Source of the DNA: Thermoplasmata archaeon
Lineage (GTDB): Archaea; Thermoplasmatota; Thermoplasmata; UBA10834
Direction: 5' to 3'
NCBI GenBank assembly: GCA_020696365.1
Contig: JAEHCM010000006.1
Span: 19,484-83,483 of the forward strand
Length of the DNA stretch: 64,000 bases
In this document: piece after piece, positions 6,704 through 27,100 of the stretch
Layout of the letters: every line of letters starts with the position of its first letter
Position numbering within the stretch: position 1 is the stretch's first letter
Translations under genes and position numbers: made by a program
Notes under the pieces: model-generated
The model's database searches: none
What the model was told of the DNA's origin: nothing
Seen by the model: the letters and a program-made list of their open reading frames with translations, nothing else

Positions 6704-6922
6704 ATGCCTGACCAAAGGCGCTCGGATCCGAAAGTGAGGCCGTGTGACATTTCTGGCTGTGAGAAGACTGCGGAGAGAGCGGTGAGCGGGAAGAAGGTCG
6801 AAAAGGCAGGGTTGGACCTGTCCTCTGACCCGACCAAGACCGCTCATCTGTGCAAGGACCATTACCGCAGCTTCAAGAAGAAGACCAAGAAGGACCGCGT
6901 TCTCGAACGGCTGGATTGGTGA
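6704..6922 (+). CDS. Small basic putative zinc-binding protein
   Basis: CDISGC...HLCKDHY and a Lys-rich C-terminus; ATG at 6704. Confidence 0.6.
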   Translation: MPDQRRSDPKVRPCDISGCEKTAERAVSGKKVEKAGLDLSSDPTKTAHLCKDHYRSFKKKTKKDRVLERLDW

Positions 6923-6990
6923 GTCCTGAACAGTACCCCGCTTCAGGTTCATTGGAAAACAAGGATATACGAGGCCATGATACGAGTGCG

Positions 6991-9047: not shown

Positions 9048-9291
9048 GGGTATTTCTGACCGGGCAACCAATAACGTGGTGACTGGATGGGGCAGTTGAA
9101 TGAGATTCGTCGACGCTCTGAGACAGCCGACATTCGTTATTGACAGGCGATGTGGTTTTTCAGATACTGTTTTATAGCATATTTCGATTCCTGGTATGTC
9201 CAGGTTGACGACAGATGCGATTCATCGAACGCACGCTCGTTGGCCTGGGCTGCCGAAGCGACAACAGTTGTTGTTGAGGGGGAATTGAACC

Positions 9292-10251: not shown

Positions 10252-10256
10252 TCAAG

Positions 10257-11366
10257 ATGGCCAAGGATATTATCAGCGTCAAGGATCTGCGAGTATGGTT
10301 TCAAGTGCGGAGAGGCTTCATCGAGAGCATCCTCTCAGAAGAGCAGAAGTATGTGAAAGCGGTCGACGGTGTCACCTTCACCATCAAAGAGAGGGAGATA
10401 TTCTGTCTTGTGGGCGAGTCAGGCTGCGGCAAGACTACCACGGGCAAGGCCATCCTGAGACTGGTTGAACCCACCGGTGGAGAGGTGGCGTACTTCGGGC
10501 CAGGCAAAGAGGACATGATGAAGGAGATGGTCGAAGTCGCCCTCGCCAAAGATGAGATCGATGAAGACAAGGCAGAGAGGATCATGGAGAGGGGCGGGAT
10601 TAACATACGTGCTCTGAGCAAGAAACGGATGAAGTCGATGAGGCAGAAGCTCCAGATCATATTCCAGGACCCCTACGAATCGCTCAACCCCAAACAGTCG
10701 ATCTATGACATCGTTGCCGAGCCGCTAGTTGTCAACTCTATCGGCGCAAACGAGGCTGAAAGGGAGGAGAGGGTCACGAAGGCACTGGACGACGCAGGAC
10801 TCAGGCCTCCCAAGAACTTCATGTGGAGGTATCCGCACGAAGTCTCCGGCGGTCAGAGACAGAGGGTAGGCGTCGCTGGTGCGCTGGTGCTCGACCCCGA
10901 CTTTCTCGTCGCGGACGAGCCAGTGTCCATGCTGGATGTCTCGATCAGGTCAGAGATTCTGAAGCTCATGCTCGACCTCAGGGAGAGCAAAGGCCTTTCC
11001 TTCCTGTTCATTACGCACGACCTCGGCGTCGCCTATGTTTTCAGTGATAGGGTGGCCGTCATGTACCTGGGCAAGATCGTCGAGATGGGCCCGACGGAGA
11101 AGGTGATTAAGAACCCGCAGCACCCGTACACGAAGGCGCTCATATCCGTCATCCCGACCCCTGATCCCAAGGACAGAGAAGAGAAGATCATCCTAGTGGG
11201 CGAGCGCCCCGACCCGTCTGATGTGCCACCAGGTTGCAGGTTCCACCCTAGATGTCCGTCCGTCATGGACATCTGCCGGTCGGAGGAGCCGAAATCCGTA
11301 TTCGTATCTCCGGGGCATTCGGTTTCCTGCCATCTGCTGATAATGCAGGGAGCTGGCAAGAGTTGA
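10257..11366 (+). CDS. Oligopeptide/dipeptide ABC transporter ATP-binding protein (DppF/OppF family)
   Basis: [39 protein letters not shown]; ATG at 10257. Confidence 0.92.
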
Positions 11367-12457
11367 ATCGGCCCCGAGCGAGGGATGGGGGCGTCCGCTT
11401 CGGTGACGTACCGACAGGTCCAAGGAACACCATCACGGATGTCAAAGGTGTCAAGGTCGGACACTGCACGCTCAGGAAGGGCGATGGTAAGCTGGTCCCG
11501 GGAGAGGGGCCAGTGCGGACCGGGGTGACCGTCATCCTCCCCCACGGAGATGACCTCTACAGGAGACCGGTCAAGGGCACCTACTTCGCCCTCAATGGCT
11601 GTGGAGGACTCATGGGGGCGCTCCAGGTGGAGGAGTTCGGGGTGATTGACTCGCCTATCGGGTTGACGAACACGATGGGCATGGCGTCCGTTGCGGAGGG
11701 GCTTGTTAAGTACACCCTCGAGCGGAATCCACTGGCGGGGATCGAGCACGACACAGTGATCCCCGTGGTTTTAGAGTGTGACGATGCTCATCTGAACGAC
11801 ACCCGAGGGCTTCATGTGAGGCCTGAGCATGTCTTCGAGGCGATAGCAGCTGCGGGCGATGACGTCTCTGAAGGCGCCGTCGGGGCTGGAACTGGCATGG
11901 TCTGTTATGACTTCAAAGGAGGGATAGGGACATCCTCCAGGTTGGTTGAGGTGCAGGGCGAGAAGTACACCGTAGGCATAATCGTCCTCTCGAACCACGG
12001 AGAGCGCAAGGAACTGATCATAGATGGGGTACCTGTCGGGAAGCTGCTCAACTCTGTGGAGGATCCCCACAGGAAGGAGAACGGTTCGATAGTGACGGTG
12101 ATAGCCACTGACGCCCCGCTTGATGCACGCCAGCTCAGAAGGATTGCCAAGCGTGCAGGGATGGGACTCGCACTGACCGGATCGTGCGCCCGCAACGGCA
12201 GCGGGGACATCATGATAGCCTTCTCGACCGCCAACGTCCACGACCGATACGAAAAGGAGCGGTTCGTCCTCACGCACCATCTCCTCGTGGATAATGAGAT
12301 GAGCGCCTTCTTCAGGGCGACGGTTGACTGCACGGCCGAGGCGATCATAAACTCATTGTTCAAGGGGGAGACGGTCAAGGGGCGCGACGATAACATCGTC
12401 CCAGGGCTGCCGATCGATGAGACATTGCAGCTGTTGAAGGCTCGCGGATGCCTGTAA
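11363..12457 (+). CDS. P1/S58 family peptidase (DmpA-like L-aminopeptidase/D-esterase)
   Basis: NTITDVKGVKVGH, GAVGAGTGM, GSIVTVIATDAPL autoprocessing site, NGSGD; TTG start overlapping the upstream stop. Confidence 0.88.
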   Translation: MNRPRARDGGVRFGDVPTGPRNTITDVKGVKVGHCTLRKGDGKLVPGEGPVRTGVTVILPHGDDLYRRPVKGTYFALNGCGGLMGALQVEEFGVIDSPIGLTNTMGMASVAEGLVKYTLERNPLAGIEHDTVIPVVLECDDAHLNDTRGLHVRPEHVFEAIAAAGDDVSEGAVGAGTGMVCYDFKGGIGTSSRLVEVQGEKYTVGIIVLSNHGERKELIIDGVPVGKLLNSVEDPHRKENGSIVTVIATDAPLDARQLRRIAKRAGMGLALTGSCARNGSGDIMIAFSTANVHDRYEKERFVLTHHLLVDNEMSAFFRATVDCTAEAIINSLFKGETVKGRDDNIVPGLPIDETLQLLKARGCL

Positions 12458-12538
12458 CGGCTCAATCTGTCAGATATCTTTTTCAGCAACCAGTGCGATG
12501 CCTAATGCACGCGTCCAGCGAGGGAGACGAAACAACCC

Positions 12539-13753
12539 ATGTCAGGCGACAAGAAGGACGTCGGTGACAAGATCAGAAGAGCCGTCAGGAAGGGAGCGAT
12601 AGAAACGCTTGCGAGACGGCTCATTGCCATCCCGAGCCATTCTGGAGTGCCAACTAGGGAGAAGGAAGCCGCCGAGTTCCTGCATGAGTATCTGTCGGGC
12701 AACGGGGTCAGTTCGAAGCTCAGGAAGGTCGAGAAAGGCAGGCCGAATGTCATAGCGATCGTGAAGGGCACCACAGGTGGAGGTAAGAGCCTCATGTTGA
12801 ACGGCCATCTGGACACCGTGCCGGCGTATAAGATGGACATCCCACCCTTCACCCCCAAGGTGAAGGCAGGCAGATTGTACGGGCGAGGAGCACTCGACAT
12901 GAAGGGTGGCCTCGCCGCGATGGCATGTGCCCTCGTCGCCATCGAGAGATCGCGAGTTGAGCTCCAGTCGGACCTGGTACTCGCCGCGGTCGTTGGCGAG
13001 GAGGAGCGTAGCGAGGGAACCGAGGACATCGTGATGAAGGGCCCGAGGACGGACTTCGCAATCGTAGGCGAGCCGACGAACCTGGAGATTCAGCCGTCCC
13101 ATAGAGGTCTCGAATGGCTCGAGGTCCATGTATATGGAAAGGCCGCCCATGGAGGGCAGTCGGACAATGGAGTGAATGCGATCTCTATGGCCGCGAAGTT
13201 CATAGATGTGGTGGAATCTGAGCTCCTCCCCAAGCTTGGGAAGAAGACCAGCAAGCATACCCTTCCACCAACACTCAACCTCGGGGTCATCAAAGGAGGA
13301 CAGCAACCCAGTTCGGTCGCGGACCACTGCGTTTTGGGAATTGACCGACGGTGGATCCCGGAGGAATCGCTGGACCAGGTGTTCCAGGAGATATACGACG
13401 TCTTCGACACCGTGAAGAAGGACCACCCGAAGTTCAAGGCGAAGCTGAAGCGTGACCCGAGGAGCATGAAAACGATGACGCACGTGCCGAATGTCGTCCC
13501 CTCAGACCATGTTCTCGTGAAGTCCCTCGGTAGCTCTGTGAGGCAGGAGACAGGTAGACGAGCGAAGATCTCGACCTTCTGGGGTTGGACGGACGCTGCA
13601 TTGCTGACCCACTTCGCCAAGACCCCGACGGTCGTGTTCGGCCCTGGCGGAGCCGGTGCTCACGCGAAGACGGAATATGTCAAAGTGAGCGATCTGTCAG
13701 CATGTACGAATGTCTACATGGATGTGGCCACTAGACTTTGCCTGGTCGATTGA
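12539..13753 (+). CDS. M20 family metallopeptidase/deacylase (ArgE/DapE-like)
   Basis: LNGHLDTV, GRGALDMKGG, GEEE, GEPT, C-terminal AH. Confidence 0.9.
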   Translation: MSGDKKDVGDKIRRAVRKGAIETLARRLIAIPSHSGVPTREKEAAEFLHEYLSGNGVSSKLRKVEKGRPNVIAIVKGTTGGGKSLMLNGHLDTVPAYKMDIPPFTPKVKAGRLYGRGALDMKGGLAAMACALVAIERSRVELQSDLVLAAVVGEEERSEGTEDIVMKGPRTDFAIVGEPTNLEIQPSHRGLEWLEVHVYGKAAHGGQSDNGVNAISMAAKFIDVVESELLPKLGKKTSKHTLPPTLNLGVIKGGQQPSSVADHCVLGIDRRWIPEESLDQVFQEIYDVFDTVKKDHPKFKAKLKRDPRSMKTMTHVPNVVPSDHVLVKSLGSSVRQETGRRAKISTFWGWTDAALLTHFAKTPTVVFGPGGAGAHAKTEYVKVSDLSACTNVYMDVATRLCLVD

Positions 13754-13756
13754 AGT

Positions 13757-15385
13757 TCACGAGACAGCAGGCGGTTTTCTGAGGACCAGGCCCGCACGCT
13801 CCTTCAGGTGCTCGCCATTCTGAATCGTCAGTATCCCGTTCACGAACACCTCCGTGATACCCTCGGAATACTGATGCGCATCCGCGAAAGTCGCCCTGTC
13901 CCGTATCGTCAGAGGATCGAACACGACGACATCCGCCATCATACCTTCCTTTATAATTCCTCTGTCGGTGATTCCTAACCTTTGAGCTGGGGACGACGTC
14001 ATCTTCCGTATCATCTCCTCGATCGAGACGACATGCTTGTCGATGACATACCTCCGAATGGCCCGCGGGAACGTACCATACGCTCGGGGATGCTCCGCGA
14101 TGTCCGCCAACGGGCCATACGGAGCGCTCACCTCTCCATCAGATGCGATCGATGAGAGCGGGTGCTTGATCACCCTCACGACATCATCCTCAGACATCTC
14201 GTGGAAGAAGGCTGTGATGTCAAGTTCCTCGTCTATTAGGAGGTCGAAGACCGCGTCCGGTGCATCCTTTCCCATCTCACTCGCTATCTCGCTCACACGC
14301 CTATGGTTATAGGCTTTGTTCGCGGGCTTCTTGAAACCGATCACCTCGATGTCATCCCAGCAATTCTCACCGACGATGTTCTCCCAAGGCACATCGCGAT
14401 TGGTGAAATCCGCCCTGATCCTCGCCCTAGTCTCAGGATCGGCCAATCTGTCGAGGATGGCGCCGCTACCGCCATCCTGAACCCACGGTGGCAGGACAGC
14501 GAACAGATCAGTGCAAGAGGATGTGTAGGGATAGACATCGAACGCAACGTCGACGCCTTTCTTGCGGGCATCCTCGACCATGCGGATGCTTTCTACCACA
14601 AGTCCCCAGTTCGGCCTCCCCCCCGCTTTGTGATGTGATATCTGCACCCGGAGTCGCGCCTCCCGGCCAATGGTAATCGCCTCGTCCACTGACTTGAGGA
14701 GGGTGCTACCCTCTCCTCGTATGTGACTCGCGTATATGCCTCCCAGTGCTCCAGATGTCGAAGCGAGTGCGATGAGCTCCTCCGTAGTGGCATAGCATCC
14801 CGGTGCGTATATGAGCCCGGATGATAGGCCGAAGGCACCCTGCACGATTGATTCTGCGACCAGCTCCTTCATCTCTTCGAGCTGCGAGTCAGTAGGCGGT
14901 ACATCATCTGGACCGATCACGCCCGAACGCACAGTATCCGCCCCCACCAAAGTAGCCACGTTCACAGATGTCCTGAGGTTCTCAAGCCTCAGAAGGTACT
15001 CGTCCATCGTGACCCAATCCACTTGTACGCAATATCTCGTTGCGAAGTCAGCTGTCATCTCCCTCGCAAGGCCTATCAACGGCGCGGCAGACCCCCCGCA
15101 GTTCCCGACGACCTCCGTTGTCACGCCTTGCCTGATCTTGCTCTCCGCAAACGGGCAACCGAGCAACGAGATATCGGAGTGCGTGTGTATGTCGATGAAT
15201 CCTGGACATACGATACTTCCGGCGGCATCGATCGTCACGGCGCCCTTCGAGGTCCCGGGTTCATGGATTCCAGTGACCTTAGTTCCATCAAGCCCGACAT
15301 CCATCTTAACGGAGGGCGCTCCGGTCCCATCGACAAGCTTCCCTCCGACAATAAGGATCGCATGATCACTCGTCATGATGTCCAT
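13757..15385 (-). CDS. N-acyl-D-amino-acid deacylase (amidohydrolase family)
   Basis: PGFIDIHTHSD, GNCG, SHIR, SHHK, SDG, HPRAYGTFPR. Confidence 0.9.
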   Translation of the reverse strand: MDIMTSDHAILIVGGKLVDGTGAPSVKMDVGLDGTKVTGIHEPGTSKGAVTIDAAGSIVCPGFIDIHTHSDISLLGCPFAESKIRQGVTTEVVGNCGGSAAPLIGLAREMTADFATRYCVQVDWVTMDEYLLRLENLRTSVNVATLVGADTVRSGVIGPDDVPPTDSQLEEMKELVAESIVQGAFGLSSGLIYAPGCYATTEELIALASTSGALGGIYASHIRGEGSTLLKSVDEAITIGREARLRVQISHHKAGGRPNWGLVVESIRMVEDARKKGVDVAFDVYPYTSSCTDLFAVLPPWVQDGGSGAILDRLADPETRARIRADFTNRDVPWENIVGENCWDDIEVIGFKKPANKAYNHRRVSEIASEMGKDAPDAVFDLLIDEELDITAFFHEMSEDDVVRVIKHPLSSIASDGEVSAPYGPLADIAEHPRAYGTFPRAIRRYVIDKHVVSIEEMIRKMTSSPAQRLGITDRGIIKEGMMADVVVFDPLTIRDRATFADAHQYSEGITEVFVNGILTIQNGEHLKERAGLVLRKPPAVS

Positions 15386-15545
15386 TGAGTAGATTCTGCG
15401 TGGATTATATAACGGTTCTCAACGCTGGCCAAGTATTGTATCGTGAATCGGTTCTTCGAGTAGACAAATGAGGGTAGCCCTGAATCTCTTCAAGTACCAA
15501 GTCTACGGAAGCGACTTCGTGATGTCACTGTTCATCGGAGGGCCC

Positions 15546-16907
15546 TCAACCGGAGGACTTCATCTTTCTCAATACTTCCTCGCTCACCACGAGTGTTCTC
15601 TCGACGTCCTCGTCCGTGTGCTCGGTACAGGTATAGAATGGCTTGTCAGGGTGGAAGTGGATCCCTCTTGCGAGCAAACCGTAATCGAACTGCATGCGGA
15701 GCTTCGCGTCGAAGTGCATGCAGTCACGATAGCTACGCGGCACCTCGACTTCCTTAGCGAATATTATGTTGAAGGTCGACCCAGGGCCATACGCTATCGC
15801 GTCGAACCCCATCCGGTCGAACAGGTCGTTGAGTCCGTTCTCCAGCTTCGCGGTTATCCTGTTGAGGTACGGGTATGTCTCAGGCTCCTCCAGGACATCG
15901 ATGGTCGCCATGCCGGCGGCGAGAGCGGTCGGGTGGCCGTTGAACGTGCCTCCGTGGAAGACCCTATTGTTCTTGTCCCGAGTGAGAGGGTTGACGACGT
16001 CCATTATGTCTTCCCGCCCGAGGAACGCTCCTGCCGGAAAACCGCCGCCGATTATCTTCCCAAGGCACATCAGGTCCGGTGTAACTCCGTACATCGTCTG
16101 AGCTCCTCCGAGACGGTCCATCCTGAAACCCGACATGACCTCGTCGAATATGAGTATAATTTCGAGTTCCTCTGTCGTCTCACGAACGGCCTTTAGGAAC
16201 TCTGGCTCCGACTTGATGAACCCCCTCTGTACGGGCTCCATTATCACGGCAGCAAGGTCGTTCTTGTGCTCCCTGAGAAGTCTCACCGTGTCCTCGGCAT
16301 CATTGAACGGAAGCACCTGAGTGCTCTGGAGGGTATACTCTGATGTCCCTAGCGAGCACGCAACCGGTTGAGGGGATGTGTAGGGACCTGCGGTCTCCTC
16401 CGACGGCGTAAGGCTGACGAGAGCCTCATCGTAGCAGCCATGATAATGCCCCTCGAACTTGGCCACCCTGTTGCGGCCTTTGAATCCCCTGCACACGCGC
16501 AGGGCGTGGAGCGTAGCCTCAAGGCCGGAGTTCGTGTAACGGACGCGCTCAGCACATGGGAATATCCTGTTGAGCCGCTCGGCCATCAGGCTCTCGAATT
16601 CGTGAGGCGGGCCGAATATCGTCGTGCCGTCCCGGTCCAGCTGTTCCCTGACGGCCTTCATCACTCGGGGATGTCCGTGTCCCAGGATCATCGGCCCGAA
16701 GCAGAGCATGTAATCGATGTACTCGTTCCCGTCCAGGTCCCACAGGTGAGACCCTTTCGCCTTCTTAGCGAACACGGGATACGGATGGTAGAACTTCACG
16801 TTCCCCGTCACGCCTCCTGGGAGGTGCTCTTTCGCCCTCGCGAACCATTCAGCAGTCTTCTTGGTCTTGCTCCGGTATTCCCCGACGGGGTCGAAGGCAG
16901 CGTCCAT
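15546..16907 (-). CDS. Class III PLP aminotransferase, glutamate-1-semialdehyde aminomutase-like
   Basis: KFEGHYHG, FDEVMSGFR, LGKIIGGGFP, GTFNGHP; N-terminal motif PGGVTGNVK differs from the HemL PGGVNSPVR. Confidence 0.85.
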   Translation of the reverse strand: MDAAFDPVGEYRSKTKKTAEWFARAKEHLPGGVTGNVKFYHPYPVFAKKAKGSHLWDLDGNEYIDYMLCFGPMILGHGHPRVMKAVREQLDRDGTTIFGPPHEFESLMAERLNRIFPCAERVRYTNSGLEATLHALRVCRGFKGRNRVAKFEGHYHGCYDEALVSLTPSEETAGPYTSPQPVACSLGTSEYTLQSTQVLPFNDAEDTVRLLREHKNDLAAVIMEPVQRGFIKSEPEFLKAVRETTEELEIILIFDEVMSGFRMDRLGGAQTMYGVTPDLMCLGKIIGGGFPAGAFLGREDIMDVVNPLTRDKNNRVFHGGTFNGHPTALAAGMATIDVLEEPETYPYLNRITAKLENGLNDLFDRMGFDAIAYGPGSTFNIIFAKEVEVPRSYRDCMHFDAKLRMQFDYGLLARGIHFHPDKPFYTCTEHTDEDVERTLVVSEEVLRKMKSSG

Positions 16908-16913
16908 CTATCC

Positions 16914-17684
16914 TCACCTCAGGTAAATCTTATCGGGATCCAGGGCTCTCAGGGTGGTGACTTCCATCTCCGTTGGCGGAGGAGTCGTCACGAGCTCTTC
17001 GGCCACCTTGACATTCCAAGGGGTGTTCTCCTGGACCTGCTCGATGGTGACCCCTTCGTGCAGGGCTGTGACGGTCATTTCACCCGTCACCTCGTCGAAC
17101 TTGAATGTGCAGAGGTTGGTGATCACCGCATACGGCCCTCCACCCTGGAGCTTGAGCTTTCTCCAGCCCTCCTTGCCGTCGATGAACCCCGGGCTCGTGA
17201 GGAAATCGACCTTCTCAACGAACCTCCTCTTCTCGTGAGGCGTAATCACAATGATCTTCTTCACGTTCGACGCGATATCACAGGCACCCCCGCTCCCTGG
17301 AAGGCGTACCTTCGGGGTCTTGTACGTGCCTATGATAGTCGAGTTGATATTCCCGTACTTGTCTATCTGGGCGCCGCCTAGGAAACCCACATCGATCCTT
17401 CCGCCCTGGAGGTAGTAGGCGAACTGCTCATACATGGAGCAGACGCTCTTGGCACCGCTCACAAGGCAAGGGTCCCCTATCGAGAGCGGCATGCGACTCG
17501 GATTCGACCCGACCGCCCCTGACTCGTAGACCAGCAGCAAGTTGGGCGCCTGCAATTTCTTCGCTAGGTTCGCGGCAAGGTTGGGTATTCCCACTCCGAC
17601 CAACACAGACTCGCGGTCCTTCAGCTCCCTCGCGGCAACGATGACCATCAATTCACTCTGACTCACTTCTAACATCATGCTCAC
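16914..17684 (-). CDS. Family I CoA transferase beta subunit (GctB-like)
   Basis: VYESG with the catalytic Glu, GGAQIDKYGNINST, RLPGSGGA. Confidence 0.88.
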   Translation of the reverse strand: MSMMLEVSQSELMVIVAARELKDRESVLVGVGIPNLAANLAKKLQAPNLLLVYESGAVGSNPSRMPLSIGDPCLVSGAKSVCSMYEQFAYYLQGGRIDVGFLGGAQIDKYGNINSTIIGTYKTPKVRLPGSGGACDIASNVKKIIVITPHEKRRFVEKVDFLTSPGFIDGKEGWRKLKLQGGGPYAVITNLCTFKFDEVTGEMTVTALHEGVTIEQVQENTPWNVKVAEELVTTPPPTEMEVTTLRALDPDKIYLR

Positions 17685-17690
17685 CCCGCA

Positions 17691-18611
17691 TCACACGCTC
17701 CCGTAGTTCACAGGCGAGCTGTACGCCTCCTTGGGACGAAGGCCATCAACCTTCGACGGGGGGAGCTTACTGACGTATTCCGACCTGCTCTCCACTCCGT
17801 GTACCCACTCGTCGATGTACTTCATAGTGCTCTCGTGTTCCTTGGTGATCTCGTCCCACTTGACATAGAACTCGTTGTCCCGGTCGTAGTATCCCTGGAC
17901 GTAGGACGGATGCGCACACCAGGGCTCATGGACGACCGCATGGGATAAGAAATCGGGTACAAGAGTCCTGTTAGGGTCGGACCTTATCACCGACTCGTCC
18001 ACTATCTCCTCGGCGCTTATGATGACCTTCTTCGCGGCGAACGCCGCGTCCTTCTGCTCCCCAATGATCCCCCAGATGTGACAATTGCCGTTGACATCCG
18101 CCCTCTGCACATGCACTACGGCGACATCCGGTTTCAAAGGAGGTACGACAGAGACTTCGTCGCCAGAGTATGGGTCTTTGACGACCTTCATCAATGGATT
18201 CTGTGCGGGGAGGTCTGAGCCCAGGTTCGTCCGCATCGGAAGGAACGGCATGTTCGTGGCTCCCGCGAAGAGTCTTCCCGACAAGCCGAAGTGAGTATAC
18301 TCCTCGATCTCGAGCGGCTTCGGGATACCCTTCTCATGTGCCCTCCTGAAGCATCTCAACGACCCCACGCCGGGGTTTCCGGCGTAGCTGAAGATGAGTC
18401 TCTTCGCGCATCCGGCTGCTATCATCTGGTCGTATATTATGTCTGGGGTGGCCCTGGCCAGGACAAGATCCTTCTTCTTCTGTCTTATGACCTCATGACC
18501 CGCGGCGAACGGTATCATGTGCGTGAATCCTGCAAGGTAGACCGTGTCTCCGTCCTGCACGAATCGGGATACCGCCTCCTTCATCGTCATAGTCTTACTC
18601 GAATCCATCAA
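17691..18611 (-). CDS. Family I CoA transferase alpha subunit (GctA-like)
   Basis: GFTHMIPFAAGHE, HVQRADVNGN, GYYDRD. Confidence 0.88.
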   Translation of the reverse strand: MMDSSKTMTMKEAVSRFVQDGDTVYLAGFTHMIPFAAGHEVIRQKKKDLVLARATPDIIYDQMIAAGCAKRLIFSYAGNPGVGSLRCFRRAHEKGIPKPLEIEEYTHFGLSGRLFAGATNMPFLPMRTNLGSDLPAQNPLMKVVKDPYSGDEVSVVPPLKPDVAVVHVQRADVNGNCHIWGIIGEQKDAAFAAKKVIISAEEIVDESVIRSDPNRTLVPDFLSHAVVHEPWCAHPSYVQGYYDRDNEFYVKWDEITKEHESTMKYIDEWVHGVESRSEYVSKLPPSKVDGLRPKEAYSSPVNYGSV

Positions 18612-18612
18612 C

Positions 18613-19038
18613 TCACCTCGATAACTCCTCAGGGATGAACTTGAATCCGTACCTTATGACGCCTTCCTCGCTGTAGACCTTTCTCAGCTCGGTCGAGACG
18701 GGCATATCCATCTTGACGTCCTTGGGGTTGACATCGGCGATCTGACCGATGACCTTCGGCCCTTCCTCCAGTTCCACGATGGCGACGGGGTACATGCCTC
18801 CCGCCTTCTCCTGCTCGGCGAACTCTGGTGGAGCGCCTCCCGCCCCGATCAATACGAACGTGTGGACCTTGCCTTTGCCGCTCAGCTTGACCTCATCGAA
18901 CTCGAAGGAGGCATTGCAGTACTTGCACACACCCTTCGGGGGGAAGTTGACCGCGTCGCACTTCCTGCACCTCTGTCCGACCATTCTGTACCTCTGGGGT
19001 ATGGTTCTCCAGTACATCGGAACTGACACATGCGCCAT
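18613..19038 (-). CDS. DUF35 Zn-ribbon/OB-fold protein
   Basis: CRKC...CKYC, GKVHTF, IRYGFKF; start set at ATG 19038. Confidence 0.9.
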   Translation of the reverse strand: MAHVSVPMYWRTIPQRYRMVGQRCRKCDAVNFPPKGVCKYCNASFEFDEVKLSGKGKVHTFVLIGAGGAPPEFAEQEKAGGMYPVAIVELEEGPKVIGQIADVNPKDVKMDMPVSTELRKVYSEEGVIRYGFKFIPEELSR

Positions 19039-19048
19039 GCTCACCACC

Positions 19049-20074
19049 TCACTTGATAGCTCCCTTGAGTTTCAGATACTGGATATAGTCAATGTACTGC
19101 TTCCTATCAACCTCAGACCTGAGGCCTGGATCAGCCTTTCTCTCTCCGACGATCTTGAAGCTCATCGCGTCACTTGCGGCTCCTGAACCGTAGCTGATGA
19201 CGAGAATCCGGTCACCCATTTTTGCCGCGTCAAGGGCTGCTGCGAGCCCAACAAGAGTCGATGCCGCACCCAGGTCCCCGAGTTCTCCAGCTATCGAGCT
19301 ACTAGCTAGATGAGTGTCCGTGAACCCCAACTTCCGGGCTATCGCACGTGGCAATCGGGCATCTGGCTGTTGTATGACCACATGCGCGTAATCCTCCTGC
19401 TTGGTCCCTATCTTCTCCAGAAGGGAGCGCGCGGCTTTCACGGTGGCTCCGATGAACGATGACTGTGCGTACTTCTTCACGTTCAGGTCGCGTATCAACT
19501 CGTCATCTCGGGGCCTGAATCTCTCTCCGAAATGCTCACACACATACGTCGCATGCCCTTCGAACTCCGCAACAAGATCATCATGAGACAGCACGAACCC
19601 AGCAGCACCCGCCCCGAGCCCGTGCTCGAGCGAAGACCACATACTCGCCTTTGGTGCATCTGCTGCGGCCACCAGCGCACACCCTGACGGGTTCGCGAGA
19701 ACATGCTCCACCCCGGCCATAAGCGCCTCCGTGCCCGCCCTAGACGATGTGGTGTGGTCGGACACGAACGCTCCGTCAGGCATGCCTATGCTGCTCACAA
19801 TCGTGCCCGAAAGGACCTTCTCAACATACGGAGCAGATGTTGATGCTAGCGCGAACCTCGTCACCTTTCCCGGCTCCAAAGGAACCGACGCCAGCGCCCT
19901 CTTCGACACCTTCGACGCGAATGTAAGGATGTCCTCGTCGAAGCCCATCACGGCCTTCTCGCTCACACCCGACGCCTGGAACGACCCCCATGCCTTGGCG
20001 TACTCATCCTTCTTAATCCTCAGTCTCGGGACCGCGACGCCATATCCAGAGATACCTATCGACAGCTTAGTCAC
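19049..20074 (-). CDS. HMG-CoA synthase homologue with substituted catalytic residues (probable pseudoenzyme)
   Basis: HMGCS-like N-terminus and SYGSGAASDA are retained, but SES>STS, ACKAGT>SSRAGT, HQPN>QQPD and GNTYS>GDLGA. Confidence 0.8.
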   Translation of the reverse strand: MTKLSIGISGYGVAVPRLRIKKDEYAKAWGSFQASGVSEKAVMGFDEDILTFASKVSKRALASVPLEPGKVTRFALASTSAPYVEKVLSGTIVSSIGMPDGAFVSDHTTSSRAGTEALMAGVEHVLANPSGCALVAAADAPKASMWSSLEHGLGAGAAGFVLSHDDLVAEFEGHATYVCEHFGERFRPRDDELIRDLNVKKYAQSSFIGATVKAARSLLEKIGTKQEDYAHVVIQQPDARLPRAIARKLGFTDTHLASSSIAGELGDLGAASTLVGLAAALDAAKMGDRILVISYGSGAASDAMSFKIVGERKADPGLRSEVDRKQYIDYIQYLKLKGAIK

Positions 20075-21237
20075 CTCCTCAGAATCGATACGGAAACCGT
20101 GCCGCCGGAGCCGCCCACGTTGTGAATGAGTCCTATCTCCGCATCTCTCACCTGTCTGGCAGGCTTATCGACCGTCCCCCTGAGCTGGTTGAACATCTCA
20201 TAGGCCTGTCCGGTGCCAGTGGCGCCGATGGGGTGCCCTTTGGATTTGAGTCCCCCGCTCGCATTCACCGGTCTATCGCCATCGATCTGGGTGTGGCCAT
20301 CTTCGACGAACTGTCCTGCCTTGCCCTTCTCGCAGAAGCCCAGGTCCTCACACGCGAGAAGCTCTGCTATCGTGAAACAGTCGTGGACCTCGGCCAGCTG
20401 TATATCCTTCGCCGAGAGCCCGGCCATATCGTAGGCATTAGCAGCCGCTCTCTTCGTCCCTTCCAAAGTGACCGTGTTGATCCTGTCGTGGATCGCGAGA
20501 TAATCGCTCGACGAACCGAATCCAGCAATGTAGATGGGCGTGTCCGTAAACTCCTTCGCAAGCTCGGCATCGCAAACGAGCACCGATGACGCACCGTCAG
20601 TGGTAGAGCAGCAGTCGAACAGGTTCAGAGGATAGGCCACATAGGGGCTCTTCACGGCTTTCTCCAAGGTTATTTCCTTCTGGAACTGCGCCTTGGGGTT
20701 CTGCGCGCCATTCTTGTGATTCTTGACCGCTACCGCGGACAGGTGCTCCCTCGTCGTCCCGAACTCGTGCATGTGCCTATGGGCGATGAGGGCGTACAGT
20801 CCGGCGAAAGTCGTCCCTGCGAGTCGCTCGTATTCCGTATCTCCCGAGACGCCAAGCCAGTACTTCTGCTTCACACCAGAGACATCTGTCATCTTCTCAA
20901 CGCCGCCAGCAAGCACCACGTCGTGGGCTCCAGAGAGGACGTCCATGCACGCGGAGATGAGCGCATATCCTCCGGAAGCGCAGGCGTTCTCGACTCTCAC
21001 GGTGTGTATGTAGGGAAGGCCGACGAACTCCGACACAAGGGCAGACATGTTACCCAGCTGGAATCCGCCCGAGCCAAGGTTGCCGACATAGGCCGCTCCA
21101 ATGCGTCTGGAATCCATTCCCTTGTCAACGCTCTTCACCATGTCCTGATACGATTCTAGAAACAGCTCTTTGATGCCTTTCTCGGGAAAATCACCGTACC
21201 TACTCTGTCCGGCTCCAACGATCGCGACCTTTTTCAT
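20071..21237 (-). CDS. Archaeal-type thiolase (acetyl-CoA acetyltransferase family)
   Basis: VENACASG, EVHDCF, GHPIGATG. Confidence 0.92.
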   Translation of the reverse strand: MKKVAIVGAGQSRYGDFPEKGIKELFLESYQDMVKSVDKGMDSRRIGAAYVGNLGSGGFQLGNMSALVSEFVGLPYIHTVRVENACASGGYALISACMDVLSGAHDVVLAGGVEKMTDVSGVKQKYWLGVSGDTEYERLAGTTFAGLYALIAHRHMHEFGTTREHLSAVAVKNHKNGAQNPKAQFQKEITLEKAVKSPYVAYPLNLFDCCSTTDGASSVLVCDAELAKEFTDTPIYIAGFGSSSDYLAIHDRINTVTLEGTKRAAANAYDMAGLSAKDIQLAEVHDCFTIAELLACEDLGFCEKGKAGQFVEDGHTQIDGDRPVNASGGLKSKGHPIGATGTGQAYEMFNQLRGTVDKPARQVRDAEIGLIHNVGGSGGTVSVSILRR

Positions 21238-21354
21238 GTTGATTCCCTCGCCTCGCGCGCTGATGCGCGCCCGTACTGAAAAACTGTCATACGGGCATCA
21301 ATCAACGGCAGATTCTGCGAGTCTGGATTGGCATGTGTTGAAACAAGAGCTCGG

Positions 21355-21362
21355 ATATATAA
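21355..21362 (-). promoter_or_regulatory. Candidate TATA box of the thiolase operon
   Basis: TTATATAT on the minus strand, about 120 nt upstream of the thiolase ATG. Confidence 0.45.
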
Positions 21363-21558
21363 CGATTCGCGACCAACACTCACTACAACTCGCGCTTTTT
21401 AGACACTGCAATACGAATCACGATACCTCCCGTCGCAGAAGGATTACTGCGGAATTCGTATTCCTTAATCGACCTTCGTAACACTAGCCTACCCTCCGTG
21501 GGCAGAGGCTAAATAGAGAGTGAGACAATCGCCTTTTTGAGTCGATTGGACGAAGAGA

Positions 21559-22842
21559 ATGAACCTGATGCCACCTCGCACTGAAATATCGCTTTGGAAG
21601 GATGTCACGCCCGAACAGTGGAACGACTGGAAGTGGCAGGCGAGGAACAGGATTACCAAAGTGGAGGAACTCAAGGAAGTCATCAACCTAACGCCAGAAG
21701 AGGAAGAAGGCGTCCGCGAGTCTCTGAAGATACTGAGGATGGCCATCACACCGTACTACGCTTCCCTCATGGATCCTGCCGACCCTTACTGCCCGGTGAG
21801 AAAGCAAGCGGTGCCGACCATCAAGGAGCTGGACTTCGGAGAGGCGGACATGGAGGATCCACTGTTCGAGGATGTCGACTCCCCTGTTCACGGACTCACA
21901 CACCGATATCCCGACAAGGTGCTGTTCCTGATCACAGACCAGTGTGGAATGTACTGCAGACATTGCACGAGACGGCGCCTTGCGGGACAGACAGACCACG
22001 AGCGTGACAAGAGCACAATAGACGCCGCAATCAGGTACATAGCTGAGCACGACGAGGTCAGAGATGTCCTCCTCTCTGGCGGCGACCCGCTCCTGGTATC
22101 AGACGAAAGGCTTGAGGACATCATCTCCCGTCTCCAGAAGATAGACCATGTGGACATCGTCAGGATTGGTAGCAGGGCGCCTTGCACGCTCCCGCAGAGG
22201 GTTACGCCGAAGCTATGCGAGCTGCTGAAGAAGCACCATCCCATATGGCTAAACACGCACTTCAACCATCCAAAGGAGATCACACCAGAATCCAAGAAAG
22301 CCGTGGAGATGCTGGCCGATGCAGGTGTGCCCGTCGGGAACCAGTCTGTCCTGTTAAAAGGGGTCAACGACTGCCCCACGATCATGAAGAAGCTGGTGCA
22401 GGATCTCGTCAAGATAAGATGTCGTCCATATTACTTCTATCAATGCGACATATCGAGAGGCATAGAGCATTTCAGGACATCAGTCGCGAAGGGCATCGAG
22501 ATTTCCGAAGCCCTGAGGGGGCACACATCCGGATTCGCGGTTCCGGACTTCATCCTGGACGCTCCAGGTGGCGGAGGCAAGATACCTCTTGCCCCACAGT
22601 ACCTGATATCGATGTCAGACAAGCGTGTCGTCGTCCGGAATTACGAGGGTGGTATATTCCAGTACCCTGAGCCGAAAGACAGGGTCAGCGTCTGTCCACC
22701 CACCTGCAAGATGTGCGACGAATACTCGAAGATCGAAAGCAGGGAAGGCGTGGCCGGCGTTCTCTCAGGGCAGAAATTCGCGCTGATACCAGAAGGAAGC
22801 GCCCGTGCACAACGCCGCGAGAAGTTCGGAAAGAAGACGTGA
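21559..22842 (+). CDS. kamA: Lysine 2,3-aminomutase (radical SAM/PLP)
   Basis: CGMYCRHC, YQCD and LDAPGGGGK (lysine-type Asp residues plus the PLP Lys). Confidence 0.92.
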   Translation: MNLMPPRTEISLWKDVTPEQWNDWKWQARNRITKVEELKEVINLTPEEEEGVRESLKILRMAITPYYASLMDPADPYCPVRKQAVPTIKELDFGEADMEDPLFEDVDSPVHGLTHRYPDKVLFLITDQCGMYCRHCTRRRLAGQTDHERDKSTIDAAIRYIAEHDEVRDVLLSGGDPLLVSDERLEDIISRLQKIDHVDIVRIGSRAPCTLPQRVTPKLCELLKKHHPIWLNTHFNHPKEITPESKKAVEMLADAGVPVGNQSVLLKGVNDCPTIMKKLVQDLVKIRCRPYYFYQCDISRGIEHFRTSVAKGIEISEALRGHTSGFAVPDFILDAPGGGGKIPLAPQYLISMSDKRVVVRNYEGGIFQYPEPKDRVSVCPPTCKMCDEYSKIESREGVAGVLSGQKFALIPEGSARAQRREKFGKKT

Positions 22843-22933
22843 CTGGCTAGCTTCCGGCAACCAAATCCACTCATTCCGAAAGGATTAAAAACGAACAGCA
22901 TATCATTCCTTTCGGTTTTCGCGAGGCGAGTGC

Positions 22934-24130
22934 ATGGAAAGGAACATTCTGATTGAGGAACTCACGCACACCCCGGTCGAGCAGCAGGTAATCGAATTCG
23001 TCGAGCGAAAAGGCATCGGCCATCCTGATTCGATAGCTGACGGCCTTGCAGAGAGCGTCAGCAGAGCACTATGTAAGATGTATCTCGAGCGGTACGACCG
23101 CATACTACACCACAACACTGACGAGACACAGATTGTTGGCGGTCAGTCCGCACCTAAGTTCGGAGGAGGAGCGATCCTCGAACCGGTGTACATCCTCCTC
23201 GTTGGCAGAGCGACGACCAATGTCGACGGGGAACGGCTCCCGTACAGGACATGCGCCATGAAGGCGGCCTATTCATATCTTGAACGAACCTGCAAGAGCC
23301 TTGATGTCGATTGGGGGGTTGTCCTCGATTGCATGATAGGTGAGGGCAGTGTCGACCTCAGAGGTGTGTATGAGACACAGCGACGACTCGCTAACGACAC
23401 ATCCTTCGGCGTCGGCTTCGCTCCTTTGAGCGAGACGGAGCAGATAACTCTCAACACGGAACGGTACATCAACGGGGATTTGTGTAAGATCCTTCCTGAG
23501 ATAGGTGAGGACGTCAAAGTCATGAGCTTCAGGAACGGATCCAAGATTGACATAACAATCGCTACCGCGATTGTGTCCTCTAAAGTCTCGGACAAAGACC
23601 ACTACAAGAGCGTGATTGAACAATGCACGAGCAAGGTCGCTGACTTCGCGTCGAAATACACTGACAGAGACCTCAGCGTTTTCGTCAACACGGCAGATGA
23701 TTACAGTAAGGACATCTACTATCTGACCGTCTCGGGTCTTTCGATGGAGAACGGTGACGATGGCTCTGTCGGCAGGGGCAACCGTGCGAACGGCCTCATC
23801 ACCCCCATGAGGCCAATGAGCATGGAAGCTTCTGCCGGGAAGAACCCCGTGACCCATGTTGGAAAGTTGTACAACATACTGTCGAGCCAGGTGGCAAAGA
23901 GGATTTATGATATGGCTGGCGGAGACATACTGGAAGTTAACACGAGGATTCTCTCCCAGATCGGCAAACCCATCGACTATCCACATGCGGCCAATGCGAA
24001 CATCATATACGCCCCGAATGTCGACAAAGCGAAGTATGACCGGGAGGCCCGCGCCATATACGATGAAATGCTCCAGAACATGGACCGCCTAACGATGGAC
24101 ATCGTCGAAGGAAAGATCACGGTGTTCTGA
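22934..24130 (+). CDS. mat: Archaeal methionine adenosyltransferase
   Basis: VERKGIGHPDSIAD, ENGDDGSVGRGNR, GKNPVTHVGKLYN. Confidence 0.95.
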   Translation: MERNILIEELTHTPVEQQVIEFVERKGIGHPDSIADGLAESVSRALCKMYLERYDRILHHNTDETQIVGGQSAPKFGGGAILEPVYILLVGRATTNVDGERLPYRTCAMKAAYSYLERTCKSLDVDWGVVLDCMIGEGSVDLRGVYETQRRLANDTSFGVGFAPLSETEQITLNTERYINGDLCKILPEIGEDVKVMSFRNGSKIDITIATAIVSSKVSDKDHYKSVIEQCTSKVADFASKYTDRDLSVFVNTADDYSKDIYYLTVSGLSMENGDDGSVGRGNRANGLITPMRPMSMEASAGKNPVTHVGKLYNILSSQVAKRIYDMAGGDILEVNTRILSQIGKPIDYPHAANANIIYAPNVDKAKYDREARAIYDEMLQNMDRLTMDIVEGKITVF

Positions 24131-24199
24131 GCAGGTGACAACCATCGGCGTGGATAGAATCACTCATGACCAGGAATGGATCGACGCACTTCCTGGGCT

Positions 24200-27100
24200 T
24201 CACTCCGGTTTCTCCAGTTGGTCTTCTCTTGTCCTCAATAACTGAGCCAACTGAGCTAGCTCTTCCTCGATGCTGTGCAGGCGCTCCCACTCGGATTCGA
24301 GCCGCTGCTCGTCATGCCTGAGCGCCTCCTCGCGCTCAGCGAGGCGCAGGTATGTGTCATCCAACTCTGACTTCTTACGCTCGAGCTCCTCTATGGTCTT
24401 CCCATCCACGGTCGAGAGGCCTTCCTTCGCGCCCTCTAACCTGTTCCAGAGATCCTCCACCTCGACCCTCTCCTTTTCCAGACGGTCGATCTCCAGAACT
24501 ATGGCACTCTCCCTGCCCTCGAGATCTCGCTCCCTCATCTTGACAGATTCCTCCATCTGCCTGAGGTCCACCTCACGCTTGAGCGCCGCCTCGTCCGATA
24601 ACTCTTGCCTGCCGGATCGCGCCGCCGCGGCCTCCGCCTCCTTGGTCAGCTCGGCTACCCGCTCGCGGACCTCCTCCTCGACCTTCTCGCGCCTAGATTG
24701 CAGCTCGAGCCTCCATGTCTCGAGCTCTTCCCTCAGTTGCTCGAGTCCGCGCTCCTTCTCTTCGACATGACCGCGCTCCGTCTCAGTCTCCACCTGTAGC
24801 AGCTCGAACTCGTTCAGGTTCCTCTCGAACTCCAACATGCGCTGATCGAGTTCACGCTCCTTCACATCGGTCTCCTCTTTCTTGTGGACGATCTCATCGG
24901 CCACGCTCTTGTATTCGTCTGCCGACTGAGCCATCTCATCCTCACGCTTGCTGATTGCGTGCTCTGCCGTCTCCAGCCTCGCTCTCAACTCGTTTATCTC
25001 AGACTCCTTTCCTGCTATGATAAGGGATTTCTCGGAAATCTCAGATTCACTCCTTGCAAGGGCTTCGTCCTTCACAGCGAGGCGCGCCTGGGTCTCGGCG
25101 AGCTCCGCTGACGCCTCCTGGAGTCCGGTGCGCTCCTGCTCGAGTTCCTCGCGCATGCGCTCGAGCGCGGTTCTCTCACCCTCCATCTTGGTCTGCTCGG
25201 CCGCCTCGAGGCTGGAGAACGCTGCCTCGCGGGCATCAAGCTCGGACTCCCGCTTGCGAAGAGTCTCTTGAAGTGATTCCAACTCCCCGCGTCGCTCCTC
25301 GGCCGATTCAGCCTCCGTTTGGAGACGGGAGTTCGTCTCGCTCTCAGACCGTTCTAACTCTGCCTTCCACGTCTCGATCTCTTCGGACATGGATCTGAGT
25401 TCGGCATCTTTGGCATCCTGGGAGGACTTCAACTGCTCGATTTGTGACTCACGCTGCTGGATCTCGGCCTCCCTCTCAGCGAGTCTGGAAGCCTTTGCCT
25501 CAAGTTCCGACTCACGCTCCGCAACCTGCTCGACCGACCGTCCCAGGGCAACTGCATTATCCTTCTTCTCCTCGAGAAGCCTAGTCTCCTCCTCCATTCG
25601 AGATTTGGACTCATCCAAGGCTGCGCGTTCATCGACCAAGCGAGCTCTATCCTCCTCGATTGACGCCGCCATGCTTCGAATCTCATCTTCCCGAGCGGAT
25701 AGCTCATTCTTCTGCTCGGTGACAGCAGCCGTTGCAGCCGCCAACTCGGCGGCTCTCGACTCTGCCTCCTTTGACATTTCATCGATCGACGAGCTTCGCG
25801 TCTCGTGATGCGATTCCATATCGCCCACTGCGGCCTCGCGCTCTTCTATTGCACGAACCTTCTCGGCGAGCTCCTGTTGAAGAGTCGCCAGCTCAGCCAT
25901 CTTGGTCCCGAGTTCGTCCGACTTCGAGTCGAAGTCTCCATGCCTCTCCTCCACTGTGGCATGCAATCTCGCGAGCTCCTCCTTCTCGGCCTCCAGACGC
26001 TCTCTCTCCCCACTGACAGAGGACCTCTCAGCGTCCGCGTCCCGCCTCATCGACTCGATATCGTTGAGGGCCTGGTCACGCTCCGACAAGAACGCCTGCC
26101 TCTCATTCTCCAGACTAGTCCTTTCAGCTTCGACTTCTCTTCGCATGCCGTCAAGAGACGCCTTGTCTAGCTCCACCGCCTTCTGCGATTCTTCAAGCTG
26201 GGTCTCCATGTCTTCGATGGAGCGGCGCGTCTCGGCGATCCTCTCCTCTCTCTCATCGACCTCGGCCTGGAGCTGGGTCATCTCGGACTTCATCTTCTCA
26301 AGGCTGGCGACCTCCTCCTGGGTCTTCTCCCGCTCGATGCACATGCTCTCGTCGAAAGATCGTCGCTCTCCTTCCAAAGATTCTATCTTCGACGTGATCT
26401 CAGCAGTGCGCGACTCGAGGTCGGACTCCCTCTCCCGGACCTGAATCTCCCTTGACGAGAGATCCGCGTCTCGTTGAGCCGCACCCGCCGCCATGTCCTC
26501 CAGTTCGCTCTTCCACGAGTCCAGCTCCTGCCTCACCCGTTCGTCCTCTGCCATGCGCTCCTCGACCGCTGACTTCTCTGACTCGAGCTTCTGGAGTTCG
26601 TCGTCGAGCGCGGACTTCCGAGAGGCCAATTCAGTCTGCTCGTTATCTATCGATGCTACATGCTCAGCGACCTTGCGCTCCCTCTCCTCGACGGTAGTCC
26701 TCATGTTCTGGAGCATTTGGGCCGTGGACCGAAGGTCCTCCTGCCTCGCAAGGATGTCCCTCTCTAGTGTCTCAAACTCCTCGTTCTTCTGCCCCTGTTC
26801 CCGCCTAAGCTGGTCGAGCTCTACACGCTCCTCCGCCATCCGAAGCTCCGAAGCGGCAACATCGCTGGACCTCTTGTCGAGGATGGCCTGCATCTCCTGG
26901 ATTGAGTAATCCCTCTCTTCCAGCTCTTTCCGGTCTTCCTCCAGCTTCGCCGATAGCCCGTCAAGCTCCTTCTGCCTCGGCCCCGTTGTACTGTCGAACT
27001 GCTCCTTCTCTTCGTTCAAAGCAATCTTGGCCTGCTCAACCGACCTGCGGTCCGCATCAATCTGTTCCCTGAGACGGTCACGCTCCTCCGTGAACTGCTC

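Follow-up and report, generated by a model that had tools for sequence, protein, structure and literature searches.

Within a 64,000-nucleotide stretch of DNA from a Thermoplasmata archaeon (the window), we analyzed a minus-strand operon of six genes, coding for a thiolase, a 3-hydroxy-3-methylglutaryl-CoA (HMG-CoA) synthase (HMGS)-like protein, a DUF35 protein, the alpha and beta subunits of a CoA-transferase, and an aminotransferase resembling glutamate-1-semialdehyde aminomutase (GSAM), together with the divergent genes for lysine 2,3-aminomutase (kamA) and methionine adenosyltransferase (MAT). The window corresponds to C64:19484-83483 of a source assembly (G000) that is 1.84 Mb in size and 86% complete. 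The analysis supported the view that the six genes form one conserved module tied to a KamA predicted to be lysine specific, and, judging from gene content and context, the locus as a module probably serves a cobalamin-independent breakdown of lysine via beta-lysine.

Pfam and NCBIfam searches confirmed the family of all eight gene products (Table 1). KamA scored above the equivalog cut-off of TIGR03820 (525.4 bits), and in the alignment with 2A5H, the lysine 2,3-aminomutase of Clostridium subterminale, it keeps the CxxxCxxC motif (CGMYCRHC), the lysine that binds pyridoxal phosphate (PLP) (GGGGK), Asp293 (YQCD), and Asp330 (LDAP). The two Asp residues bind the epsilon-amino group of lysine and were used as the criterion of lysine specificity. 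By this criterion the KamA of the window is shown to be of the lysine-specific type and is predicted to make beta-lysine; the retention of the two residues, which had been noticed in an earlier reading of the sequence alone, was borne out by both the alignment and the family score.

Conservation of the operon was assessed in a sample of 401 Thermoplasmata genomes, 46 of which belong to the family of the window. Orthologues of the aminotransferase, with at least 66% identity, occurred in 43 of these 46 genomes and in four genera, and the operon was found in 45, two of them counted from a thiolase gene that adjoins kamA on short contigs. In 28 family genomes the aminotransferase and KamA (74 to 100% identity) were encoded on the same contig at a distance of approximately 4.65 kb, which equals the five intervening genes, while in 13 fragmented assemblies the two genes lay on separate short contigs or one of them was not found. 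The only exceptions on long contigs were G150 (L091, G150:C1) and G282 (L092, G282:C18), whose clusters are truncated at the thiolase end, one being without the thiolase gene and part of the HMGS-like gene and the other retaining only the last third of the alpha gene and what lies downstream of it, and in both the adjacent kamA copy was lost as well. The same gene order was also present on public contigs.

A second Thermoplasmata family carries the six-gene operon intact (L086, L088, and L119) with kamA elsewhere in the genome. There, kamA was present in all five genomes that bear the operon, versus none of the 19 genomes that have only a 50%-identical paralogue of the aminotransferase linked to a gene for a beta-keto acid cleavage enzyme (BKACE). 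The paralogue genes are convergent with the BKACE gene (L097, L098, L003, and L005) and are flanked by genes for a second GSAM-like aminotransferase, a D-aminoacylase-family amidohydrolase, a methyltransferase, Opp-type ABC proteins, and an aldehyde dehydrogenase. At L117, which has the same flanks, the genes for the thiolase, the HMGS-like protein with a dead active site, the DUF35 protein, and the aminotransferase stand together, and transferase genes are missing. Hence, beside an aminotransferase of this clade, the locus in the second family contains one of three modules, namely BKACE, the thiolase/HMGS-like/DUF35 triad by itself, or this triad with a GctAB-like transferase (L086 and L088), so that in related genomes BKACE enzymes stand where the module is otherwise found. 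Since these are three alternative means of beta-keto cleavage at one locus, the aminotransferase clade is linked to making a beta-keto compound from which a C2 unit is subsequently removed.

An analogous gene set was found outside the archaea. In Candidatus Cryosericum (Caldisericota), a single operon on a 369-kb contig, with unrelated flanking genes, contains in order kamA (TIGR03820, 567 bits), a gene for a PRK05769-type aminotransferase resembling those for ornithine or 4-aminobutyrate (GABA), a gene for an aminotransferase of the same clade as that of the window (46% identical), a classical thiolase gene, and the A and B genes of a 3-oxoacid CoA-transferase (pcaI/scoA family). NCBIfam typing did not place this thiolase nearer to PcaF than to generic thiolases. 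Neither the thiolase nor the transferase is orthologous to its archaeal counterpart, and the likeness therefore lies in pathway logic, not in common descent. The gene arrangement, seen in 28 genomes of four genera, in the second family, and in the analogous Caldisericota operon, is more than chance. Thus, the association of kamA with the operon holds in relatives, by adjacency in 28 family genomes and, as two independent lines, by co-occurrence in the second family (five of five versus none of 19) and by the analogous Caldisericota operon.

We examined the triad residue by residue. By NCBIfam PRK04262, the HMGS-like protein would be labeled an HMG-CoA synthase (260 bits versus a cut-off of 244). 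None of the four catalytic tetrad residues is retained (Glu is replaced by Thr, Cys by Ser, His by Gln, and Asn by Asp). The same four replacements occur in five orthologues from two families (L081, L082, L086, L088, and L117). In the ranking of PDB matches PhlA (9SKH/5M3K) came first and the archaeal HMGS 6ESQ_I next, and identity to the HMGS encoded on contig C22 of the source genome is 31%. Judged by these residues, the subunit is shown to be incapable of acting as an HMGS and is predicted to add no reaction, so the HMGCS-like gene, which the sequence-only reading had listed among the six genes, contributes no step to the lysine route; by analogy it is probably a scaffold and part of a shared CoA site. 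The thiolase keeps the nucleophile Cys (ENACASGG), HDCF, and GHP in all orthologues, and it is nearer to the archaeal acetoacetyl-CoA thiolase (ACAT) 6ESQ_A than to PhlC (E of about 1e-33).

Such complexes have been characterized in bacteria. In the Friedel-Crafts acylases PhlACB and MucABC both the tetrad and HDxF are lost, and a Pseudomonas complex in which only the tetrad is lost cleaved acetoacetyl-CoA and formed neither HMG-CoA nor acetoacetyl-CoA (PMC12960953, 2026). The triad of the window has the sequence features of this thiolysis-only (PfACAT-type) class, in that its HMGS no longer has the tetrad and its ACAT still has the Cys, HDxF, and GHx. Because it shares the state of the published thiolysis-only complex, it is best read, by analogy, as a degradative thiolase complex. 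The two have the same three-protein architecture and the same combination of a dead HMGS with an intact ACAT, and only thiolysis was performed by the Pseudomonas complex. They differ in that the latter belongs to no known pathway and has its HMGS and DUF35 parts fused, whereas the triad of the window is embedded in a catabolic operon, a setting that suggests a physiological role. With PhlACB the likeness extends to two residues, as the HMGS-like subunit and PhlA both have Thr in place of the Glu and Gln in place of the His; in contrast, PhlC and MucB have lost HDxF and act without CoA substrates, whereas the thiolase of the window keeps HDCF. A PhlACB-like, CoA-independent acyl transfer was ruled out by the retained HDxF and by the closer match of the thiolase to archaeal ACAT, and the neighborhood of the operon contains no polyketide synthase or nonribosomal peptide synthetase.

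The source genome encodes a second HMGS-thiolase-DUF35 triad outside the window (C22:173751-176399), presumably for the mevalonate pathway, whose HMGS tetrad is intact and whose thiolase has Gly for the catalytic Cys (EAAGASGG) and GDP for GHP. By their motifs the two triads are reciprocally degenerate, that of C22 being predicted to be HMGS-active and thiolase-dead and that of the window thiolase-active and HMGS-dead. A mevalonate role of the window triad was ruled out by its dead HMGS tetrad and the presence of the C22 triad. The Cys-less thiolase of the C22 type was found in 16 of 17 other genomes of the order (L099-L116; G084 excluded), including a sister family and genomes that carry no operon; since the defect is order-wide, compensation for the Cys-less mevalonate enzyme by the thiolase of the window was ruled out. 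A classical thiolase is encoded at C11:91440-92609 in the same genome.

The best families of the aminotransferase are GSAM/HemL, with scores below their cut-offs (TIGR00713, 370.7 versus 527.3 bits). In a maximum-likelihood tree it falls into a clade with a support of 98/98, separate from true HemL (99/100) and from paralogues of the C67 type, and its PDB relatives include 4AO9 and 2YKU, the beta-phenylalanine and Mesorhizobium beta-transaminases. HemB was found neither in the source genome nor in closed relatives, while the control matched in 11 of 14 genomes. The absence of HemB, the subthreshold TIGR00713 score, and the separate clade together rule out that the enzyme is HemL. A scan of a genome collection with the aminotransferase returned mostly true HemL at 36 to 40% identity, and a metagenome scan with the clade alignment returned three further clade members only. 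By family and PDB matches, the enzyme shares the HemL-like class-III fold with Kat (EC 2.6.1.111), which is active only on CoA thioesters and encoded beside a thiolase (PMC3149608); the description of Kat as a HemL-like acyl-CoA beta-transaminase, given in the sequence-only reading, agrees with that report. A second GSAM-like aminotransferase, 40% identical to that of the window, is encoded at C67:15577-16932 in this genome, which has no HemB, next to genes for zinc-type alcohol dehydrogenase-like, class-I aldolase-like, and MttB-like methyltransferase proteins. One genome of the family contains a HemB match of 475 bits (G009:C57:6659-7600), attributable to contamination or to a lineage-specific tetrapyrrole pathway.

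By homology of both subunits, the transferase belongs to family I and to the GctA/GctB type. Both matched glutaconate CoA-transferase (1POI_A and 1POI_B), and the catalytic glutamate is conserved in the beta subunit, with ESG aligned as YESG.

From these assignments we propose a route in which KamA would convert L-lysine to beta-lysine, the GSAM-like aminotransferase would turn the 3-amino group of a free beta-amino acid (beta-lysine or a derivative modified at C6) into a 3-oxo group, and the GctAB-like transferase would place CoA onto the 3-oxoacid. The thiolase complex, by analogy with the characterized one, would then split the 3-oxoacyl-CoA into acetyl-CoA and a C4 acyl-CoA, with the thiolase as the sole catalytic subunit and with the dead HMGS-like and DUF35 proteins as a scaffold and shared CoA-binding site. 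The C4 product would be 4-aminobutyryl-CoA (or its acetamido form), or it would be succinyl-CoA in case 3-aminoadipate had been made beforehand by an omega-aminotransferase and an aldehyde dehydrogenase whose genes lie elsewhere. Transamination of the free acid before CoA is added is favored because the bacterial counterpart uses a 3-oxoacid CoA-transferase and because the substrates of BKACE, the replacement of the module, are free beta-keto acids. This evidence is suggestive but not decisive, since Kat demonstrates that HemL-like enzymes can be thioester-specific. Within the module-level function, the variants that transaminate first have, taken together, an even chance; among them a branch with a free 6-amino group seems rather unlikely, and so, a little more clearly, does one through N6-acetylated intermediates. 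The cobalamin-free beta-lysine route put forward in the sequence-only reading is thus likely, given the conserved module, the link to kamA, the lack of Kce and of a KamD match, and the Cryosericum operon, but the order proposed there, with CoA attached first, is not favored.

Absence of the established pathways was assessed at the genome level. No BKACE/Kce was detected in the cluster-bearing genomes G000 to G004, which include a closed genome of 1.4 Mb, while the controls matched and the enzyme was present in G005 and G006. For AblB (TIGR03827), the best score in eight genomes was 27 bits versus a cut-off of 205, and the control matched in Methanosarcina; acetyltransferases of the GNAT family other than the AblB type are encoded elsewhere in the source genome. 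The lack of an AblB above the cut-off in these genomes argues against synthesis of N-acetyl-beta-lysine as an osmolyte, and this reading was rejected.

Several points weigh against the proposed cobalamin-independent lysine breakdown. The synteny within one family counts as roughly one observation, because its genomes are not independent. Genomes with the BKACE-linked paralogue do not have kamA, and the aminotransferase clade is hence not restricted to beta-lysine made by the cell. The search for KamD (PF09043) gave no match in G000 and six related genomes, including the closed 1.4-Mb one, and no positive control matched either. With a free 6-amino group, 3-oxo-6-aminohexanoate or its CoA ester and 4-aminobutyryl-CoA should cyclize, to a pyrroline and 2-pyrrolidone, and the archaeal operon contains no gene for an omega-aminotransferase, an aldehyde dehydrogenase, or an acetyltransferase. 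A variant that proceeds through N6-acetyl compounds, or through 3-aminoadipate and 3-oxoadipate, is at least as plausible as one with free-amine thioesters; gene context does not separate these C6 branches, because the enzyme families employed are the same and only their order differs. With the stated limit on the KamD search, the lack of lysine 5,6-aminomutase and of an AblB-type acetyltransferase, originally remarked for the vicinity of the operon, extends to the whole genome, and the classical genes are missing from the cluster-bearing genomes (Kce with controls, KamD as no match). The lack of Kce and of a KamD match argues against classical lysine fermentation.

The alternative that survives best is a 3-oxoadipate branch, in which beta-lysine loses its 6-amino group first and the operon takes 3-aminoadipate via 3-oxoadipate and 3-oxoadipyl-CoA to succinyl-CoA and acetyl-CoA. 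It would account for a transferase closest to glutaconate CoA-transferase, which is a dicarboxylate enzyme, and for the Cryosericum order of kamA, omega-type aminotransferase, GSAM-like aminotransferase, thiolase, and PcaIJ-family transferase. In the second family an aldehyde dehydrogenase gene is found close to the module, G000 encodes several aminotransferases of the ornithine/GABA type, and cyclizing intermediates would be avoided. However, the genes for two of its steps, for which the genome has candidates, would have to lie outside the archaeal operon, the thiolase of Cryosericum matches PcaF no better than generic thiolases, and no paper was found on the formation of 3-aminoadipate from beta-lysine. 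On balance, we regard this branch as a serious candidate, though not a likely one.

Alternatively, the operon could degrade some other beta- or D-amino compound from imported peptides, the adjacency of kamA then reflecting descent within one family and no functional link. Its neighbors are compatible with this idea, as they include genes for an S58 (DmpA-type) peptidase, an M20 deacylase, a D-aminoacylase-like amidohydrolase, and oligopeptide-type ABC ATPases, with a DapF-like epimerase gene in relatives, and BKACE-linked paralogues do occur in genomes devoid of kamA. Against it, kamA co-occurs with the operon even where the two are unlinked in the second family, shares one operon with analogous enzymes in Caldisericota, and was lost along with the ends of the two truncated clusters, which makes a role independent of KamA unlikely.

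The original order of steps, in which beta-lysyl-CoA is transaminated by a Kat-like enzyme to 3-oxo-6-aminohexanoyl-CoA, which is then cleaved to acetyl-CoA and 4-aminobutyryl-CoA, draws on Kat, a HemL-like enzyme that acts on CoA thioesters only and is encoded beside a thiolase (PMC3149608), and a BKACE gene adjoining the aminotransferase gene would also reproduce a Kce/Kat pairing. Yet the Cryosericum counterpart has a 3-oxoacid CoA-transferase of the pcaI/scoA type, and in the BKACE-linked genomes, which have no KamA and gave no KamD match, a Kce/Kat-like order would have no source of its substrate. On chemical grounds, moreover, both thioester intermediates have a free amine placed to cyclize, and we consider this order improbable. 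Least of all could the locus be housekeeping, with the triad serving mevalonate synthesis, the aminotransferase acting as HemL, and KamA supplying an N-acetyl-beta-lysine osmolyte, for although the NCBIfam names (HMG-CoA synthase, PRK04262; GSAM-like) and the lack of the catalytic Cys in the other triad thiolase of the genome would fit, the lost HMGS tetrad, the C22 triad with its intact HMGS, the order-wide occurrence of the Cys-less thiolase even in operon-less genomes, and the lack of HemB and AblB make it very improbable.

The route proposed for the window, with beta-lysine transaminated and cleaved thiolytically, resembles several known systems in part. With the classical fermentation of Fusobacterium and Clostridium and its Kat variant in Candidatus Cloacimonas (KamA, KamDE, Kdd, Kce, Kal/Kat, AtoAD, and thiolase; PMC3149608) it would share the start at KamA, a HemL-like aminotransferase, a family-I CoA-transferase, and a thiolase that yields acetyl-CoA at the end. 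Unlike those pathways, it has no KamD match, no Kce, and a Kdd judged absent by context, hence no cobalamin-dependent 5,6-shift and no cleavage of C6 into C4 plus C2 by Kce; furthermore, the thiolase belongs to an archaeal SCP2-type complex and the transferase is GctAB-like, not AtoAD-like. The end steps of the beta-ketoadipate pathway (PcaIJ and PcaF) follow the same logic, from 3-oxoacid to 3-oxoacyl-CoA to acetyl-CoA and a C4 acyl-CoA, but the archaeal transferase and thiolase are not orthologous to these enzymes. Catabolism of L-beta-lysine in Pseudomonas B4, studied by Barker and co-workers in about 1979 to 1981, reportedly involves N6-acetyl-beta-lysine transaminase (EC 2.6.1.65), cleavage of 3-keto-6-acetamidohexanoate, and a 4-acetamidobutyryl-CoA deacetylase-thiolesterase, and is said to avoid cyclization through N6-acetylation; its genes are not known to have been identified. 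That pathway resembles the proposed one in its independence from cobalamin, in beta-transamination to a 3-keto acid, in C2 cleavage, and in leading through a C4 acyl-CoA toward 4-aminobutyrate. It differs in requiring N6-acetylation and a Kce-like cleavage, whereas no AblB-type enzyme was found in the genome of the window and cleavage would be by the CoA-transferase and thiolase.

Table 1. Features of the kamA locus, with positions numbered from the first letter of the window
Feature	Position	Strand	Evidence and remarks
D-aminoacylase-family amidohydrolase	13757-15385	-	1M7J E 6e-76; 3GIP E 2e-75; downstream of the aminotransferase gene
GSAM-like class-III aminotransferase	15546-16907	-	PF00202; TIGR00713 371 bits vs 527 cut-off; candidate beta-amino acid transaminase
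Family-I CoA-transferase beta, GctB-like	16914-17684	-	PF01144; 1POI_B E 6.2e-46; catalytic glutamate (YESG)
Family-I CoA-transferase alpha, GctA-like	17691-18611	-	PF01144; 1POI_A E 1.8e-42
DUF35 protein, zinc ribbon and OB fold	18613-19047	-	PF12172 and PF01796; CxxC...CxxC in the sequence
HMG-CoA-synthase-like subunit, dead active site	19049-20074	-	E-C-H-N tetrad replaced; best PDB match PhlA
SCP2/archaeal-type thiolase, predicted catalytic subunit of the triad	20071-21237	-	NF004720 487 bits; 6ESQ_A E 1.5e-89
Putative divergent promoter region between kamA and the six-gene operon	21238-21558	.	321 nt; TATA-like boxes and repeats
KamA, lysine 2,3-aminomutase (radical SAM/PLP)	21559-22842	+	TIGR03820 604 bits; 2A5H E 2.7e-174
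Archaeal methionine adenosyltransferase (MAT)	22934-24130	+	NF003364 586 bits

The open reading frames of the six minus-strand genes and of the two plus-strand genes have the same coordinates as given in the sequence-only reading, and its description of six tightly packed genes divergent from kamA and mat was confirmed, the spacing from the 3' end of the operon being 6, 6, 1, and 1 nt followed by a 4-nt overlap. The divergent region contains TATA-like boxes at about 21355-21363 (read on the minus strand) and 21508-21516, and between them the repeats TACGAAT (21412-21418), ATTCGTA (21454-21460), and TTCGTA (21475-21480). In an alignment with two other genera, the TATA-like boxes and the three repeat blocks are invariant across the three genera while the remainder drifts, and the repeats may be a shared operator of kamA and the operon. 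An Rfam scan of window positions 13000-25000, the promoter region included, gave no family match.

The MAT gene adjoins kamA, but a link of it to the operon was not supported. MAT is probably a housekeeping enzyme outside the module, because it is the sole copy in the source genome and because no MAT gene lies near the operon in the second Thermoplasmata family. The genome also encodes a second lysine-type KamA (C44:151662-152921), which is 68% identical, keeps D293 and D330, and has ABC-2 transporter genes on one side and a diphthine-ammonia-ligase-like gene on the other. Almost every genome of the family has a copy of this C44 type, G084, which has no operon, among them.

Homologues of the D-aminoacylase-family amidohydrolase are encoded beside the module in both Thermoplasmata families, and the enzyme may be an accessory deacylase; a link of the operon to the neighboring deacylases is speculation. 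The plus strand of the region 6850-15385 encodes an MFS transporter, a protein of the metallo-beta-lactamase fold, an S58 (DmpA-type) peptidase, an M20 deacylase of the ArgE/DapE type, and two ABC ATPases of the oligopeptide type that have neither a permease nor a binding protein as a neighbor. Together with the DapF-like epimerase of relatives, these neighbors may constitute a salvage set for peptides with D- or beta-amino acids.

In textbooks, lysine fermentation serves as the standard example of dependence on a cobalamin-requiring aminomutase. It is tentatively possible that Thermoplasmata from marine and soil habitats and, independently, Caldisericota possess a full lysine catabolism via a 3-oxo C6 acid that is independent of both oxygen and cobalamin. 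In that case the widespread thiolase complexes with a dead HMGS would gain a first physiological role, and in this order an ancestral triad would have split into the reciprocally degenerate copies seen in the source genome, the HMGS-active one for mevalonate synthesis and the thiolase-active one for catabolism. To the same tentative degree, the enzymes that follow KamA in the proposed route may not have been assigned before; a literature search, with older subscription papers outside its coverage, found no paper on the proposed intermediates (3-oxo-6-aminohexanoate, or 3-aminoadipate from beta-lysine) or on the gene set. If true, a short route of this kind would explain the use of lysine by uncultured peptide-degrading archaea that have neither KamD nor Kce, and it could provide genes for enzyme activities that were described some forty years ago and are not known to have been assigned to any gene. 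Beta-transaminases and thiolytic complexes of such a kind would also be of interest as biocatalysts. Beyond this locus, a function would be at hand for the many thiolase/HMGS-like/DUF35 loci of bacteria and archaea that have been classed as without a known pathway (PMC12960953).

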